From the IMG/VR virus record IMGVR_UViG_2778261222_000005: a stretch of DNA of 32,502 nt, one strand, 5' to 3'. This stretch comes from a virus. Taxonomy: Duplodnaviria > Heunggongvirae > Uroviricota > Caudoviricetes. The notes beneath the pieces are model-generated. The model saw nothing but the letters and a program-made list of their open reading frames with translations. It was not told the origin of the DNA and did not search any database. A program made the translations under genes and the position numbers. Positions 1 through 5,897 of the stretch are shown one piece after another (position 1 is the first letter of the stretch; every line of letters begins with the position of its first letter).

Positions 1-237
1 ATGATGGTTAGAAATGAAGTAATGAACAAAGACTGGCACCGCGAGTACATCGTTGCCGCTGTGCACACCAAAGGTTTTACATTGCGTGAACTTTCTGAAC
101 GCGCTGGTCTAAAAAAAGACTCTTTAAAAAATGCACTGTATCGCTCATGCCCTAAATATGAACGCATCATAGCCGATGCTATTGGTGTGGAACCTGCGGA
201 GATCTGGCCAAGCCGGTATGCCAGTAAGGCGGCGTAA
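1..237 (+). CDS. ner: Ner-like DNA-binding regulator
   Basis: 78-aa ORF; C-terminal ...AIGVEPAEIWPSRYA resembles the conserved Ner/Nlp family tail (recalled, not searched). Its stop overlaps the start of a MuA-like transposase (TAATG), the canonical Mu ner-A arrangement. ORF begins at window position 1, so the true start may be upstream. Confidence 0.8.
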   Translation: MMVRNEVMNKDWHREYIVAAVHTKGFTLRELSERAGLKKDSLKNALYRSCPKYERIIADAIGVEPAEIWPSRYASKAA

Positions 238-2279
238 TGTTTTATTCAGCCAATGAGCTGGCCGGTCTTCCTGGTTTGCCCGGTACAGTTCAGGGGGTGC
301 GCTGGACGCTCAATCGGATCACAGAGACGCACCCGGAATGGAAGCGCAAGCGCGAAGGCACCAAAGCATTCGAGTATCACATCGACTGCCTGCCCGCTGA
401 AGCGCAGAAAGTTTTACGTAAGCGCCTGACCCATCAGGTCCTGGAAGATACGCAACTGCCCGCCGTGGTTGAGCAGAAGGCAGTTAAAAACGTCGCCGTT
501 CGCGATGAACTGGAGGTGATGGTCAAATGCCCGGAGCTGGCATTACGCGAAGTCCAGTCACTGACCGACAAGCAAAAGGCCATCGCTGATGCGCGGATAT
601 TGCTGGCTACTGAAGTGCATAAGCTGCGCGAGTATGCCGGAATGACCAGGAAGTCCGCTTTAAAGCACATCGTTGATGGTGTGCGCATGGGGGCGTTACC
701 TGACCGCATTATCGAAGCAGCTAATACTGCAAATGCACGTCAGGGAAAGCGAACCGGTGTCAGCACCGGCAGCCTGGATAGCTGGTACTCCAGCTGGGTG
801 ATGGCGCGCGGTGATGCCAATCAGTTACTGGCGTTACTGGCTCCCGGTCATCATAAGGGAACACCGTGGGAGCAGGTCTGGTGGTTGAGCGATTTCTTTA
901 TGTTCTATCGCTCATGGAAGCGCCCGACTGTTGAATATGCGTATCGTGAGTTTTCAGCCTGGTGGCATGAAAAACACGCGAATGATGCGGGAATGCTGGC
1001 GGCACTGCCTTCAGTTCACGCAGTAAGACGGGTGTTAAGCAGCGTCCCGGTGATTGTTAAAGAGCGTTTCCGCTCCACCGGTTCAGCCTGGCGTTCGCTC
1101 AATCCCTTTGTGCGGCGCGACTGGACATCATTACCGGTTAATGCGGTATGGGTCGGGGATGGTCACTGTATGAAAATGACCGCGTTTAACCCCCTGACCG
1201 GCAATATTTTCCGGCCAGAAGTGACGCTGGTTATGGATGCGGGGCAACGCTTTATTGTGGGCTGGTCACTGTCCCTGTCGGAGAACGTGATAGCCGTTGC
1301 TGATGCGTTACGTTACGGCATGGCGCAGCACGGGATACCGCTGATTTATTACTCCGATAACGGGGGCGGTGAAAAAAACCGGGTGCTTGATGCCGATATT
1401 ACCGGGATTCTGCCCCGGCTGGGTGTGGAACATCACACGGGGATACCAGGTAACCCGCAGGGGCGCGGGGTGATTGAACGGGCAAACAAAGGAATACCCA
1501 AAGACGTGGCTCTGAGTTTCCAGACGTACTGCGCAAGGGATGCAGACAAGGAAACCGTAATGATGCAGCAACGGATTATGCAGTCAGCCATTAAGGCCAC
1601 CCACAAAGGGAAAGAGCTGACAAAACGGCAGGTTAAGGCGAGGGATGAAATCCCTACCTTTGAGCAACTGATGGCAGCCATAGAGCTGGAGGTCAGACGC
1701 TATAACAACCGGCCACACAGCAGCCTACCCCGCAAAGAGGATGGCGAATATTACAGCCCGGCAGCGTATCGCCGGAAACTGATAAAAGAGCAGAATGTTG
1801 AAATTGATTTCCTGTCGCCGGAAGAACTGCATGAAATGTTCAGACCGGAAGTGACGCGCAAAACATTTCGCGGGGAAATTCAGTTATTCAACAATATTTA
1901 TTACTCATATGATCTGGCCGCAGAGCACGGGAATGAAGTCAGGGTCAGTTACGATATTCATGATGCAAACAGCGTCATTGTCCGGCGGGCTGATGGCTCT
2001 TATATCTGCGATGCCATCTGGAACGGTAACAAGGTTGATGCCTTCGCTAAACCAGTTATCGAACAAAAACTGGAGAAACGCGTCAGGGGCCGCATTGCAC
2101 GGGCCACGCAGAAAATCGAAGAGGCTAAACGCGAGCTTACCCCGGCCATTACGCAGAAGCCTGACTTTAATCTGGGATATGGACTGGAACGCCCGGAGAA
2201 AAAGGAAAAAGAAGAACTTTATTTATTCGCATCTGAACGCGAACGCAATTTAAAGAAAAACGGCACAAACAACCGTTAA
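237..2279 (+). CDS. Mu A-like DDE transposase
   Basis: 680-aa ORF, size and layout like MuA; N-terminal end-binding-like region followed by a catalytic core (WVGDGHCMKMTAF..., ...YYSDNGGGE...). Followed directly by a MuB-like ATPase gene. Confidence 0.9.
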   Translation: MFYSANELAGLPGLPGTVQGVRWTLNRITETHPEWKRKREGTKAFEYHIDCLPAEAQKVLRKRLTHQVLEDTQLPAVVEQKAVKNVAVRDELEVMVKCPELALREVQSLTDKQKAIADARILLATEVHKLREYAGMTRKSALKHIVDGVRMGALPDRIIEAANTANARQGKRTGVSTGSLDSWYSSWVMARGDANQLLALLAPGHHKGTPWEQVWWLSDFFMFYRSWKRPTVEYAYREFSAWWHEKHANDAGMLAALPSVHAVRRVLSSVPVIVKERFRSTGSAWRSLNPFVRRDWTSLPVNAVWVGDGHCMKMTAFNPLTGNIFRPEVTLVMDAGQRFIVGWSLSLSENVIAVADALRYGMAQHGIPLIYYSDNGGGEKNRVLDADITGILPRLGVEHHTGIPGNPQGRGVIERANKGIPKDVALSFQTYCARDADKETVMMQQRIMQSAIKATHKGKELTKRQVKARDEIPTFEQLMAAIELEVRRYNNRPHSSLPRKEDGEYYSPAAYRRKLIKEQNVEIDFLSPEELHEMFRPEVTRKTFRGEIQLFNNIYYSYDLAAEHGNEVRVSYDIHDANSVIVRRADGSYICDAIWNGNKVDAFAKPVIEQKLEKRVRGRIARATQKIEEAKRELTPAITQKPDFNLGYGLERPEKKEKEELYLFASERERNLKKNGTNNR

Positions 2280-2297: not shown

Positions 2298-3191
2298 ATG
2301 AGTTTAATTACGCAATTAAATGACGTAATGGCCCGTCGCGGCTATACGCAAACCCACGTCGCCCGTGCTATTGGTCGTAGCAGCGCCGTTATCAACCAGT
2401 ATTTACAGGGTAAATATCAGGGCGATATGGCTGATATTGAAGAACGCATTTCTGCCTTTGTGACCCGTGAGCGGGAAAAGGAAAACAGCCGCCGTATTAA
2501 AGCGAAATTTGTTGCCACCGGTATGGCTGCCAAAGGACTGGAGGTGTTGGCCTATGCTCACCTGGAATGTGAAATCTGCGTACTGTATGGCGCGGCAGGT
2601 CTTGGCAAAACAATGATTCTGCGTGAATACGCCGCCAGAAACCGGGATGCGGTCCTGATTGAAGCCGACCCGGGCTATACAGCCAGAACACTGCTTGAGG
2701 AGCTGTGCCGCCAGCTGGGGGTAAAAGTTCGCGGCAATATCCACGAACTGATTGATGCATGTGTGCGAGAACTGCGTGATTCCGGTCGCCTGCTGATGGT
2801 GGACGAGGCTGAACTGCTCCCCTATCGCGCACTGGAGGTTCTGCGCCGTCTGCATGACAAAGCGGGTATCGGGATTGTCCTGGCGGGTATGCCACGCCTT
2901 CTGATTAACCTCAAGGGACGTCGCGGTGAGTTCGCCCAGTTATACAGCCGTGTGGCGCTGGCGCTTAACCTGGGTGATACGCTGGCGCAGGAAGATTTTA
3001 ACCAGATAGCCACCGGGCTGATGCCGGAAGCAGCAGAGCCGGAAATCAGCGAGGCGCTTTATACACGTTCGCTGGGTAATGCCCGCCGCCTGTTCAAACT
3101 GGCGCGTGGTGTGTACCGGATTTGTGATATCAGCGATGCGCCGGTCAGTGTGCAGGCCATTGATAAATTCGCAGAAATGTTAATTCACTGA
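2298..3191 (+). CDS. Mu B-like AAA+ ATPase (transposition target-DNA activator)
   Basis: 297 aa; N-terminal HTH-like segment, Walker A GAAGLGKT, Walker B-like LLMVDEAE; located immediately after the transposase; AAAAGG RBS 9 nt upstream. Confidence 0.85.
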   Translation: MSLITQLNDVMARRGYTQTHVARAIGRSSAVINQYLQGKYQGDMADIEERISAFVTREREKENSRRIKAKFVATGMAAKGLEVLAYAHLECEICVLYGAAGLGKTMILREYAARNRDAVLIEADPGYTARTLLEELCRQLGVKVRGNIHELIDACVRELRDSGRLLMVDEAELLPYRALEVLRRLHDKAGIGIVLAGMPRLLINLKGRRGEFAQLYSRVALALNLGDTLAQEDFNQIATGLMPEAAEPEISEALYTRSLGNARRLFKLARGVYRICDISDAPVSVQAIDKFAEMLIH

Positions 3192-3687: not shown

Positions 3688-4332
3688 ATGACGACTGAAA
3701 ATAAAGTTAAGCAATACACGAAAACTCAAGCGCCTGAAGGTTACTGGGTGGATGCCCGTGGCGTAATGACACCTGAAAGCCTTATCAAAGATATTGACCG
3801 CGACCGCGAGCAGCTGGTCGGTGAGCTTGTGGAGATGGTGATTGCTGCCTCCGCCTCACTGCGGGAACTGAAACTGCGTGCGTTTGGTGATATCCAGGCA
3901 TTTATTGACTTGTCGGCGGAGAAATACGGCGCTGTGAAAGGCGGCAAAAAAGGGAATATCACGCTTTACAGCTTTGACGGGCGTTACAAGATTCAGCGCG
4001 CCATGCAGGACCGTATCGCGTTTGATGAACGCATTCAGACCGCGAAGTCGCTGATTGATGATTGCCTGGCTGACTGGACGGAAGGTGCACGTCCTGAAAT
4101 CAAAGCCATCATCAGCGAGGCATTCAGCACGGACAAGGAAGGCAACATTAACACCGGGCGCGTTCTGGCCTTGCGTCGCCTTGAAATTGAGGACGAACGC
4201 TGGAATAACGCCATGACGCTGATTGGTGAAGCCGTCCAGGTGATTGGCAGCAAGAGCTATATTCGTGTGTATGAGCGCGTCGGCGATTCTGACGAATATC
4301 GCGCAATCCCGCTTGATATTGCAGGGGTTTAA
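3688..4332 (+). CDS. hypothetical protein, possibly DUF3164-like (typical Mu-like early gene)
   Basis: 214-aa ORF with GAGGT RBS. Family label rests on recalled size and position downstream of B in Mu-like prophages, not on a search. Confidence 0.65.
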   Translation: MTTENKVKQYTKTQAPEGYWVDARGVMTPESLIKDIDRDREQLVGELVEMVIAASASLRELKLRAFGDIQAFIDLSAEKYGAVKGGKKGNITLYSFDGRYKIQRAMQDRIAFDERIQTAKSLIDDCLADWTEGARPEIKAIISEAFSTDKEGNINTGRVLALRRLEIEDERWNNAMTLIGEAVQVIGSKSYIRVYERVGDSDEYRAIPLDIAGV

Positions 4333-4333
4333 C

Positions 4334-4567
4334 ATGCATCAGGATATCAAAGAGTACAGAGCCGGGAACCGTTGCGCGGCGTATTCACTGGGAGCGTCAA
4401 GAGCTGAACAGCGCGGTGATTATGCCGAGGCTGAAAAGCTGTGGCGTAAGGCAGCACAAAGCCCGTGTAGCACCCTGCGCCGCATCTGGGCTGAACATCG
4501 TGCGGAGTTCTGCGCTAACGCTCACCTGAAGGGATGGAGGCCACGCCATGAATGCGAAAAACTTTAA
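4334..4567 (+). CDS. small protein, possibly ANR-family-like regulator
   Basis: ATG at 4334, 2 nt after the upstream stop; the track's longer 4244 start would overlap the previous gene by ~90 nt. Small helical protein (...AEQRGDYAEAEKLWRKAAQS...) of the kind annotated ANR family in Mu-like prophages (recollection). Confidence 0.45.
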   Translation: MHQDIKEYRAGNRCAAYSLGASRAEQRGDYAEAEKLWRKAAQSPCSTLRRIWAEHRAEFCANAHLKGWRPRHECEKL

Positions 4568-4739
4568 TAAGTTATATCCGCCTGGTACTCGTTTCATGCA
4601 CATTGCACATCAGGCAGTGCGTGGTGGGCGGGTGGTAAAAACTGTTGCACCGGCCAGAGATTTTAAATGTGGTTGTGTGGTTGAAATTAATGTCGAGCCT
4701 TATTTCGTAAAAGTCGAAACACTGAAAGCACCGCATTAA
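4548..4739 (+). CDS. hypothetical small protein
   Basis: 63-aa ORF; GGAGG 7-11 nt upstream of the ATG; overlaps the previous ORF end. Confidence 0.5.
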   Translation: MNAKNFNKLYPPGTRFMHIAHQAVRGGRVVKTVAPARDFKCGCVVEINVEPYFVKVETLKAPH

Positions 4740-4770
4740 TTTAATTTGTTTTTAATTGTTATTTAAAACA

Positions 4771-4800
4771 GGCGTAAACCCGCCGGGGCTGGCTTACGCC
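4771..4800 (-). terminator. hairpin terminator serving the convergent minus-strand gene
   Basis: GGCGTAA...TTACGCC inverted repeat with a GC-rich interior. A T-run follows the hairpin only when read on the minus strand (plus-strand A/T-rich 4741-4770); on the plus strand it is followed by TGAATCTGAGG with no U-run. Confidence 0.45.
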
Positions 4801-4879
4801 TGAATCTGAGGAAGTTTATTTATGAATATCGCTAAGCAGAAAAAATTCGCCCGCGAAATTAATCTGACAATCGTTTGTT

Positions 4880-5098
4880 TTAATCGTCTTGCGACCAGTT
4901 CTCAATCGACAGCAGATGTTCATCCAGCGCCGCAGCCAGAACGAACTCCCCACGTTCCTGAAGGCCGTGCTGGAAGTTGCGTAATTCAGAATCCAGGGCG
5001 CTGAGGTTCAGACAGCCATTTTCTGAAAGCTGTTTAACCAGAAAACTCCACGCAGCTTTGTTAGCAGTAATTGCTGCCGCAATTTCATCATCAATCAT
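4880..5098 (-). CDS. hypothetical small acidic protein encoded antisense to the early operon
   Basis: 72-aa ORF; AGGAG 7 nt upstream of its ATG on the minus strand; ends ~80 nt before the hairpin at 4771-4800. Competes with a 60-aa plus-strand ORF (4822..5004) whose C-terminus is Pro/Arg-rich and looks like out-of-frame sequence. Confidence 0.5.
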   Translation of the reverse strand: MIDDEIAAAITANKAAWSFLVKQLSENGCLNLSALDSELRNFQHGLQERGEFVLAAALDEHLLSIENWSQDD

Positions 5099-5186
5099 TT
5101 TTTAACTCCTGATTGGGTATGTTGGGGCAGCGATTATGACAAGCGTTTTGTGGTTATAAGTTGATCAAAAACAATGAGTTACAACC

Positions 5187-5897
5187 ATGAAAGATAAATA
5201 CATTGCCAAAATCAAAAAACTGTTACGCCTTGCCAGAGGAACATCAAGCCCGGAAGAAGCCGCTAACGCTATTGCAAAAGCCCAGGCTTATATGCGCCAG
5301 CATGGTATCAGCGAAAACGACGCGGAATTGTTCGACATTCAGGAAGCTGCCAGCGCGGGTGCGCCGAGTGACGCCAGTACGCCGCCGCTTTATATGCACA
5401 TCCTGTGTGACCTGGTCTGTAAAGCCTTCGGCGTCGAGTGTTACATCTCCGGTGAGTACCGGGCTTCTGGTTCACTCAAACGTCACGTGCGTTTTTATGG
5501 CTCTGACAGCCGCCCGGAAATCGCGGCTTACGCGTTTGATGTGCTTTCCCGTCAGATGATGGCTGAACGCAAGAAATATCAGGATAAACACTGCAAACGT
5601 TGCGGCCCGTCCACGCGGGTGGCCCGTGGCGACCAGTTCTGCGAAGGCTGGGTCTTTGGTGCCCGTGATGTCATTGCGGTGTATGACGTCTCCCCGGAAG
5701 AAAAAAGCCGCCTTGAGCTTTACAGAAAGAACCTGCACAGCACTAAGGGGCTGCGCGACGGGGATATGCGCACAGCTAAAGCGTGCCGGGGTGCAGAGTT
5801 TGCCGCTACAGCCGGTTTTATCGCCGGGAAAAACGCCAGACTGCATCAGGGGGTTAATGGTCAGAGCAACAGACCGCTGGCACTGGGGAGGGTGTAA
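5187..5897 (+). CDS. DUF2786-like protein
   Basis: 236 aa; N-terminus IAKIKKLLRLARGTSSPEEAANAIAKAQAYMRQHGI matches the recalled DUF2786 helical signature; C-terminal half has a Cys cluster (HCKRCG...QFCEGW). Confidence 0.7.
   Translation: MKDKYIAKIKKLLRLARGTSSPEEAANAIAKAQAYMRQHGISENDAELFDIQEAASAGAPSDASTPPLYMHILCDLVCKAFGVECYISGEYRASGSLKRHVRFYGSDSRPEIAAYAFDVLSRQMMAERKKYQDKHCKRCGPSTRVARGDQFCEGWVFGARDVIAVYDVSPEEKSRLELYRKNLHSTKGLRDGDMRTAKACRGAEFAATAGFIAGKNARLHQGVNGQSNRPLALGRV

Follow-up and report, generated by a model that had tools for sequence, protein, structure and literature searches.

Genomic context of the locus

The window, i.e. the whole stretch of 32,502 nucleotides that was analysed, covers the left two-thirds of an E. 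coli prophage of the transposable, Mu-like type. This identity is shown by MuA, a MuB-like ATPase, DUF3164, GemA, Mor and the Mu-type late genes. The genes that frame the region studied here, assigned from annotated relatives unless another source is given, are the following.

Outside the window: repressor-like HTH gene (annotated relatives, Mu-type layout)
Before MuA: ner-like HTH gene (annotated relatives, Mu-type layout)
237-2279, plus strand: MuA transposase
2298-3191, plus strand: MuB-like ATPase
3688-4332, plus strand: DUF3164 gene
4334-4567, plus strand: ANR-family gene (NCBIfam NF033650, E = 1.3e-15)
4548-4739, plus strand: PHROG_5591 gene (annotation and PHROG match)
5187-5897, plus strand: DUF2786/DUF7168 early gene (Pfam and PHROG matches, synteny)

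Downstream of the DUF2786/DUF7168 gene follow GemA, Mor, the lysis genes and the Mu-type head and tail genes. The closest sequenced phages are Klebsiella and Pseudomonas transposable phages, with a DNA identity of ~67% at best. Using blastn we found no match among 50,697 phage genomes and, in plasmids, just one match of 56 nt, to the stem-loop described below.

Between the PHROG_5591 gene and the DUF2786/DUF7168 gene lies a small gene on the minus strand, together with several other features.

4769-4802 (arms 4769-4784 and 4787-4802): GC-rich stem-loop, an inverted repeat with 88% complementarity
4808-4814, plus strand: Shine-Dalgarno GAGGAAG, 7 nt before the ATG of the plus-strand frame (read from the sequence)
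4822-5004, plus strand: early-strand open reading frame of 60 aa, basic (pI 9.8), antisense to the 3' 125 nt of the minus-strand gene (ORF list)
4880-5098, minus strand: small gene of 72 aa with an ATG start (ORF list; UniProt B7UGF1 and WP_000564495.1 have the same sequence)
5012-5180: deletable segment of 169 bp with the N-terminal 29 codons, the Shine-Dalgarno and the putative promoter region of the small gene (alignment)
5106-5110, minus strand: Shine-Dalgarno AGGAG, with a 7-nt spacer to the ATG at 5098 (read from the sequence)
5133-5141, minus strand: promoter-like extended -10 element TGTCATAAT (minus reading) with a TGn extension (positional conservation)
5161-5168, in the divergent spacer: palindrome TTGATCAA with a GATC (Dam) site (alignment of upstream regions)

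The G+C content is 0.49 in the small gene, 0.36-0.38 in its flanks and 0.54 in the window. Around this gene the prophages of E. coli AH19B041 and of the EPEC reference strain E2348/69 are 97-99.8% identical to the window. A first-pass annotation, made from the sequence alone, had described all other genes in the window as lying on the plus strand. This agrees with an E. coli record of 99.8% identity annotated by PGAP, where WP_000564495.1 is the sole inverted CDS in the range of the window.

A family of small acidic proteins

The minus-strand frame encodes an acidic protein of 72 residues, as the first-pass annotation had claimed, with a pI of 4.28 and a net charge of -9. Its length alone is weak evidence for a gene, because many spurious antisense frames of at least 100 aa are present in the window. 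What sets 4880-5098 apart from chance is a family of homologues, the dN/dS values within this family and a conserved synteny. Judged from these comparisons, it is a genuine gene.

The exact sequence of the protein occurs on 598 contigs, and a word-indexed search returned near-identical copies only. Using phmmer against 1.84 billion representatives, we obtained full-length homologues of 75-77 aa with 37-61% identity. The profile search that the first-pass annotation had proposed gave 18 proteins, all from Enterobacterales (E. coli, Salmonella enterica, Serratia fonticola, S. odorifera and Trabulsiella odontotermitis) or metagenomes. The homologues, from E. coli, Salmonella, Serratia, Trabulsiella and metagenomes, fall into ~15 sequence clusters of 72-77 aa, at 29-64% identity. 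No family member was found in a search for related loci in the species-representative genome collection, and tblastn against the 50,697 phage records gave nothing at E <= 1. One entry of 844 aa with eight matching stretches (P0012) shows weak local similarity; it was considered a tandem-repeat or assembly oddity and left aside.

In the alignment of 16 family members (A2) the N-terminal motif AAI.AN..AW..L...L is invariant. The invariant residues are A8, A9, I10, A12, N13, A16, W17, L20 and L24, plus A55. The pairwise dN/dS (Nei-Gojobori) ranges from 0.08 to 0.67 across the family, i.e. the protein is under purifying selection. The whole family is acidic, with a pI between 4.2 and 5.9. According to the AlphaFold2 model, the structure prediction that had been proposed along with the profile search, the 72-aa protein is a helical bundle (pLDDT 89, pTM 0.72) with helices at 2-26, 32-48 and 52-71. 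The product is a strongly acidic protein of ~8 kDa, predicted to be a soluble helical bundle, and belongs to a small uncharacterised family found in Enterobacterales only.

We searched Pfam, PHROGs, NCBIfam and PADLOC with the 72-aa protein, the 16 family members and the plus-strand frame, and found nothing consistent. At E <= 1 the 72-aa protein has no match in NCBIfam, and neither this protein nor its three neighbours match the defence HMMs of PADLOC-DB v2. The comparison with known structures and folds gave no match that would assign a function; a profile match in the PDB to a designed retro-aldolase (E = 0.001 over 40 residues) was treated as noise. Literature searches with the accession numbers, and with DUF2786 together with Mu-like phages, gave nothing relevant and no mention of the protein. 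B7UGF1 and its relatives therefore make up a previously unnamed family, absent from Pfam and PHROGs, that is now defined.

Conserved inversion and frequent loss

In every Mu-like locus that we recovered, at least ten independent ones, the small gene is encoded against the array from MuA to GemA/Mor. The loci compared are from Salmonella (L010, L028, L029), Serratia (L011, L034), Trabulsiella (L030) and metagenomes (L012-L015, L020, L022). It follows DUF3164 or Gam in the early operon and is divergent to DUF2786/DUF7168. The divergent spacer is 88 nt here and ~88-92 nt across the Mu-like loci. It ends at DUF2786/DUF7168 except in L012 and L015, where a small zinc-ribbon gene stands before DUF2786/DUF7168 and the distance was taken to this gene. 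The description of an inverted, separately signalled gene inside the early operon is thereby borne out, and the orientation is conserved across genera.

The small gene is monocistronic in all loci. With no consistent Pfam match for the 16 members either, it does not classify as part of a type II toxin-antitoxin system.

Serratia odorifera carries a stand-alone copy outside any Mu-like operon, found on 14 contigs. It adjoins IS elements and a protein of 776 aa with multiple HTH motifs, and it retains its own Shine-Dalgarno and -10-like box. The 776-aa neighbour has HTH/transposase-like motifs in its N-terminal part only and gives no functional clue. Since this copy stands alone, it argues that the protein, beyond an antisense transcript, is the selected product.

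In E. coli the gene is often lost. The segment 5000-5186 is present in 8 of 5426 complete E. coli genomes, and its flanks are present in 58. About 50 of the 58 complete genomes carrying the region have the 169-bp deletion, which removes the start and the upstream signals of the small gene. The intact alleles P0001 and P0029 share substitutions with the truncated copies, and the deletion is therefore the derived state. The small gene is dispensable, an optional accessory gene, and its frequent loss in E. coli indicates that any benefit is conditional.

The deletion spares the plus-strand frame 4822-5004, whose stop then lies 13 nt before the ATG of DUF2786. PGAP annotates the plus-strand frame in most relatives, those without an intact minus-strand gene (WP_128497447.1, WP_157839748.1). 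The same DNA is thus annotated on opposite strands according to the 169-bp deletion, which makes the locus a clear-cut natural test case for annotation pipelines.

The stem-loop marks a variable cargo slot

The stem-loop at 4769-4802 had been described as the terminator of the small gene, with a U-tract only in the minus-strand reading. The minus-strand RNA of 4735-4885 folds with -35.5 kcal/mol (z = -2.9), compared with z = -0.1 for the plus strand. After the stem, the minus strand reads UUUUAAAUAA, with four U, and the plus strand GAAUCUGAGG. The strand of the U-tract is hence correct, but the tract is weak: a terminator consensus scan makes no call for the stem-loop, and in other genera the sequence after the stem is poorer than the four U of E. 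coli. The stem-loop may still be a weak terminator of the minus-strand transcript, although with such tracts termination is uncertain. A sub-threshold match to Rfam Lnt over the stem-loop, with 26 bits against a gathering score of 55, was taken as chance.

Ownership by the small gene, on the other hand, is not supported, as the same stem-loop is found in genera without the gene and is duplicated around other inserted genes. The stem-loop is near-invariant in the E. coli, Salmonella, Serratia, Trabulsiella and metagenomic loci, with the consensus GGCGTAAACCCGCC-rGGG-..GCTTACGCC and one compensatory pair, even though protein identity between these loci has fallen to 30-60%. In a scan of species-representative genomes, seven more genera of Enterobacterales turned out to have it but not the small gene. 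The Mu-like early regions that have it and lack the inverted gene include those of Photorhabdus (several species), Citrobacter, Trabulsiella, Kluyvera, Limnobaculum, Edwardsiella and others. There it follows the same upstream early-gene end and is itself followed by a ribosome-binding site and an ATG. The gene that comes next varies: Citrobacter and Edwardsiella have DUF2786 itself, Trabulsiella has a zinc-ribbon gene, and other genes are found elsewhere. No family member is encoded at the stem-loop loci of these genera. In two E. coli loci (L005 and L008) the stem-loop is duplicated and flanks extra plus-strand genes on both sides.

Because the same stem-loop precedes different genes in loci without the small gene, we regard it, on the comparison of these loci, as the element that bounds, on its upstream side, a cargo slot of variable content within the early operon. 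The conserved downstream boundary is the DUF2786/DUF7168 gene. With its near-invariant mark this slot can now be recognised in enterobacterial Mu-like prophages, including that of EPEC E2348/69. The first-pass annotation had likened the small gene to a moron, and its sporadic presence fits an accessory gene. We classify 4880-5098 as a moron-like prophage accessory gene in a variable slot, and not as a new class of system.

The overlapping plus-strand frame

The small gene is overlapped by the plus-strand frame 4822-5004. The small-gene family has two clades, and nine clade-1 loci have an equivalent ribosome-binding site and ATG at the same place. In these nine loci the frame keeps the same relative register, begins 49-58 nt ahead of the 3' end of the minus-strand gene and runs for 60-81 codons. 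Its first ~16 codons lie outside the minus-strand CDS, and here the peptides align as M-N-I-R-S-D-x-x-I-x-R-E-V-x-x-T-I. Across genera the variability of this 5' part is 0.53, 0.32 and 0.65 at codon positions 1, 2 and 3, and pN/pS is 0.57 versus 0.80 and 0.93 in the other two frames. Among E. coli sequences all four polymorphisms in 4822-4879 (at 4830, 4833, 4839 and 4845) are synonymous third positions. Taken with the ribosome-binding site, this coding signature suggests that the plus-strand frame is probably translated.

The rest of the frame behaves differently. When the codons of the minus-strand gene were reshuffled synonymously, an equally long open antisense stretch appeared in 44-80% of the trials in five of six lineages. 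With P = 0.44-0.80, openness across the minus-strand gene is expected by chance, and the length of the plus-strand frame is uninformative. Its C-terminal two-thirds vary freely. Homologue searches returned near-identical copies only, and loci that lack the small gene do not show the N-terminus behind their stem-loop. The three clade-2 loci (L022, L023, L025) have no plus-strand frame. Two apparent divergent homologues, P0008 and P0009, turned out to be frameshifted versions from poor assemblies. Selection on the plus-strand frame thus appears to be limited to its first ~16-20 codons, and the frame seems to belong to the cassette formed by the small gene and its signals.

The first-pass annotation had named conservation of this plus-strand frame as the result that would speak against the minus-strand gene. 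The coding signature of the 5' part and the PGAP calls go in this direction, but they do not displace the minus-strand gene. If 4880-5098 were a chance antisense frame and 4822-5004 the sole real gene, it would be easy to understand why PGAP calls the latter in most relatives, why the 169-bp deletion leaves it exactly intact and why its 5' part looks coding. It is the minus-strand protein, however, for which homologues over the full length were found down to 29% identity, for which dN/dS is below 1 and for which the fold is confidently predicted. The plus-strand frame has near-identical copies alone, two-thirds of it are free to change, and its length is what synonymous reshuffling of the minus-strand gene gives. 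We consider a chance origin of the minus-strand frame very improbable; it is refuted by the phmmer homologues, the family alignment, the reshuffling and the dN/dS.

Expression signals of the small gene

The AGGAG that had been noted 7 nt before the ATG is exact, at 5106-5110, and a purine-rich Shine-Dalgarno is kept in all homologous loci. In eight of 13 loci the top or second candidate for a promoter element is a -10-like hexamer 38-43 nt 5' of the ATG. It reads TGTCATAAT in E. coli, TGCCATAAT in Salmonella, TAGAAT in Serratia and TGTAATAAT in L012. No good -35 element was found in any of the compared loci, and a strict consensus sigma-70 scan of 4300-5600 gave no promoter. From the positional conservation we infer a weak promoter at 5133-5141.

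The divergent spacer also contains the palindrome TTGATCAA, and the GATCA core within the spacer dyad is kept in all clade-1 loci. The palindrome occurs once in the window, which by itself is not significant. Control by Repressor or Ner through this motif was considered and rejected, as the motif is absent from the operator region beside the repressor and its single occurrence in the window is not significant.

Proposed role of the cassette

The explanation that we prefer as a whole, with a rough probability of 0.6, is that of an inverted cargo cassette whose accessory protein is made in lysogeny and silenced by convergent early transcription. The slot between the stem-loop at 4769-4802 and DUF2786/DUF7168 holds different cargo genes in different prophages. 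The cassette found here would consist of the weak extended -10 element (~5133-5141), the AGGAG and the 72-codon gene (5098 to 4880), with a 3' UTR of ~80 nt that runs into the stem-loop of the slot. The gene faces the early promoter, and the protein is therefore most likely made in the lysogen, where early transcription is repressed. Upon induction, convergent transcription and antisense pairing would shut off the small gene.

The soluble acidic bundle with a conserved helix face suggests a role in protein binding. The 72-aa protein would probably bind a protein partner, as do accessory proteins expressed in lysogeny for exclusion, immunity or host modulation. The plus-strand frame, with its own ribosome-binding site just past the stem-loop, would be translated into the antisense of the cassette. 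Ribosomes on this frame could plausibly cover the early mRNA and limit Rho-dependent polarity, so that DUF2786, gemA and mor are still expressed. Two observations count against such a role: 5005-5186 would be left untranslated, and clade 2 has no plus-strand frame.

The selected feature might instead be the RNA or its transcription. The convergent promoter and an antisense transcript of ~360 nt would then curb leaky early transcription in the lysogen, by transcriptional interference and by pairing with the early mRNA over the plus-strand frame. In this way they would gate DUF2786, gemA and mor, with the protein secondary or cooperating. Such a brake would account for an inversion and a place upstream of gemA/mor that are kept while the proteins have only 29-64% identity. 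It would also fit the start of the plus-strand frame, which lies inside the 3' UTR of the minus-strand gene, is specific to the cassette and is missing after the stem-loop where the small gene is missing. The purifying selection acts on the protein itself, however, and a role of RNA only does not explain the stand-alone S. odorifera gene on its 14 contigs. Most E. coli prophages of this type have moreover lost the promoter and the 5' half of the gene, and we regard a brake at this level as unlikely.

Both activities could also be joined in a two-strand switch dedicated to this group of Mu-like phages, which we consider unlikely. Here the lysogenic antisense RNA would block the plus-strand frame and leaky transcription toward gemA/mor, while the acidic 8-kDa protein, an effector of a new type, would exclude phages or modulate the host. 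Induction would flip the switch, and the GATC palindrome could make the promoter respond to Dam methylation and replication state as in Mu mom and IS10.

In transposable phages the semi-essential early regions hold accessory genes for host interaction. With a variable cargo slot and a family that is consistently small and acidic, such a home would suit an anti-defence or host-takeover factor, e.g. an acidic DNA mimic or an inhibitor of a host immune protein, made from its own promoter at infection and not in lysogeny. A gene that opposes the strong early promoter would, however, be poorly expressed exactly when such a factor is needed. The protein is not similar to any known family or structure, and a 72-aa bundle with a charge of -9 is far smaller than the known DNA mimics. 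A function of this kind is clearly improbable.

Finally, the protein could act like an antitoxin that neutralises a toxic early product, and so shield the lysogen from leaky expression. DUF2786/DUF7168, the basic peptide of the plus-strand frame and Kil are the candidates. In all Mu-context loci the small acidic protein is encoded divergently beside DUF2786/DUF7168, and it overlaps a frame with a pI of 9.8. DUF2786/DUF7168 nevertheless persists in many prophages whose small gene has been lost, as well as in genera that have always lacked the small gene, and we conclude that DUF2786/DUF7168 is not toxic in the absence of this partner. At the S. odorifera copy neither candidate partner is present, and no toxin-antitoxin family was matched in Pfam or PADLOC. 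We consider an antitoxin-like role very improbable.

If the small gene is expressed in the lysogen, as we propose for the inverted accessory cassette, the 72-aa protein becomes a candidate exclusion factor or host modulator that prophages confer on pathogenic E. coli and Salmonella. How a phage copes with a gene directed against its own main lytic operon can also be studied at this tractable locus.

Comparison with known systems

Morons, as described for lambdoid phages, are independent units of promoter, gene and terminator inserted between conserved phage genes. The small gene resembles them in being located between two conserved genes, with its own ribosome-binding site and a promoter-like -10 element. 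These genes are adjacent in related phages, as shown by Citrobacter and Edwardsiella, where DUF2786 comes directly after the stem-loop, and the presence of the small gene is variable. The content of the slot varies, the G+C content is lower, and the gene is sporadically present and frequently lost. Unlike in morons, the candidate terminator belongs to the slot and not to the cassette. The gene is also inverted against a long essential operon, in an orientation conserved across genera, and is overlapped by the conserved start of an early-strand frame.

Interference between convergent promoters and antisense control are established in temperate phages, as in lambda oop/cII and P22 sar/ant. In both of these systems, and by our inference here, a short transcript runs against the lytic operon and overlaps the start of an opposite frame. 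The oop and sar RNAs are non-coding, whereas the transcript here encodes a conserved protein that is found outside the phage context too.

The ANR proteins (AraC negative regulators, NF033650) are likewise small and all-helical, with ~70 aa, and one of them is encoded 300 nt upstream (4334-4567). The 72-aa protein has, however, no match to NF033650, and hhalign assigns a probability of 0.3% to its profile pairing with the adjacent ANR protein. Membership in the ANR family is thereby ruled out.

In the Pseudomonas transposable phage Fc02, olg1 and gene 10 are small genes with an antisense overlap, active in the lysogen, where they bring about superinfection exclusion (PMC9936078). The Fc02 pair differs in being located in the immunity region, beside the repressor and ner, and in sharing a transcript with the repressor (PMC9936078). 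The gene studied here lies 4.5 kb into the early operon, has its own signals and shows no sequence similarity to them that tblastn against the 50,697 phage records could detect. Both cases involve a transposable phage, a small protein (7.9 kDa in Fc02, 8 kDa here) and an antisense overlap with a frame of the lytic operon. Fc02 is the nearest documented analogue, with a likeness that is functional and positional only, and serves as a precedent for the explanation that we prefer.

A nearly invariant stem-loop at the cargo slot

The small gene (4880-5098, minus strand) lies in a variable cargo slot between a stem-loop and the DUF2786/DUF7168 gene. The elements of this slot, in the window and in two E. 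coli relatives, are:

Window 4769-4802: stem-loop GGCGTAAACCCGCCrGGG..GCTTACGCC, an element of the Mu-like early operon
L005, 2725-2738 and 3349-3362: stem-loop copies
L005, 2774-3319: alternative slot cargo
L008, 1697-1710 and 2772-2785: stem-loop copies
L008, 1746-2742: alternative slot cargo

The stem-loop is nearly invariant in the early operons of Mu-like prophages from many Enterobacterales genera (the window, L005, L008, L039, L044, L048, L053, L068, L071, L079, L095, L098, L112, L118, L130, L136, L140, L147 and L153), and is more conserved than the genes on either side of it. It is preceded by an A/T-rich stretch of the TTTAAA type and followed by a ribosome-binding site, and it lacks a U-tract in the orientation of the early transcript. 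Other cargo occupies the slot in the E. coli relatives: a DUF7448 gene and a gene for a 181-aa hypothetical protein, each with copies of the duplicated stem-loop on both sides. The element could affect processing or mRNA stability, or else it could be a recombination boundary in cargo exchange.

Strand annotation follows a 169-bp deletion

The strand chosen by PGAP for the same DNA tracks a 169-bp deletion (window 5012-5180, compared with L003-L006). When the segment is present the annotated CDS is the 72-aa minus-strand protein, when it is absent it is the 60-aa plus-strand ORF (4822-5004). Microhomology at the junction is only 2 nt (cagAC / gttAC), and after the deletion the plus-ORF stop codon lies 13 nt ahead of the DUF2786 start.

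P0009, an apparent divergent homologue of the plus-strand ORF, was rejected as a chimera arising from L007 (GCA_036681295.1), an assembly whose copy of this prophage region contains numerous frameshifts. Such an assembly-quality artefact can misdirect protein searches.

A GATC dyad in the divergent spacer

Window 5161-5168: GATC-containing dyad TTGATCAA, within the spacer from which the small gene and DUF2786 diverge

The dyad is conserved at the equivalent spacer position in L010 and L028 (Salmonella), L011 and L034 (Serratia), L030 (Trabulsiella) and the metagenomic L012, L015 and L020, with the form TTGATC-N7-GATCAA in L012. A -10-like box follows about 35-42 nt downstream. The repressor/ner operator region (L001 1280-1417) lacks this dyad. 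Possible roles are those of an operator or a Dam-sensitive site.

A family member outside Mu-like prophages

L031, 1394-4234: Serratia odorifera family-member locus
L033, 186-3039: Serratia odorifera family-member locus

This family member (35% identity) is not within any Mu-like prophage. The co-oriented gene 277 nt upstream encodes a 776-780 aa protein, whose only motifs are HTH_23, HTH_28 and HTH_Tnp_1. IS elements surround the family member, and the pair recurs in two different downstream contexts.

An ANR-family neighbour

Window 4334-4567, plus strand: gene for a small ANR-family (AraC negative regulator) protein, matching NF033650

This gene sits within the early operon, overlapping the next gene by 20 nt, and its product matches NF033650 with an E-value of 1.3e-15 (57 bits, cut-off 32). 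The prophage encoding it is carried by EPEC E2348/69. ANR proteins are anti-virulence regulators of pathogenic E. coli.
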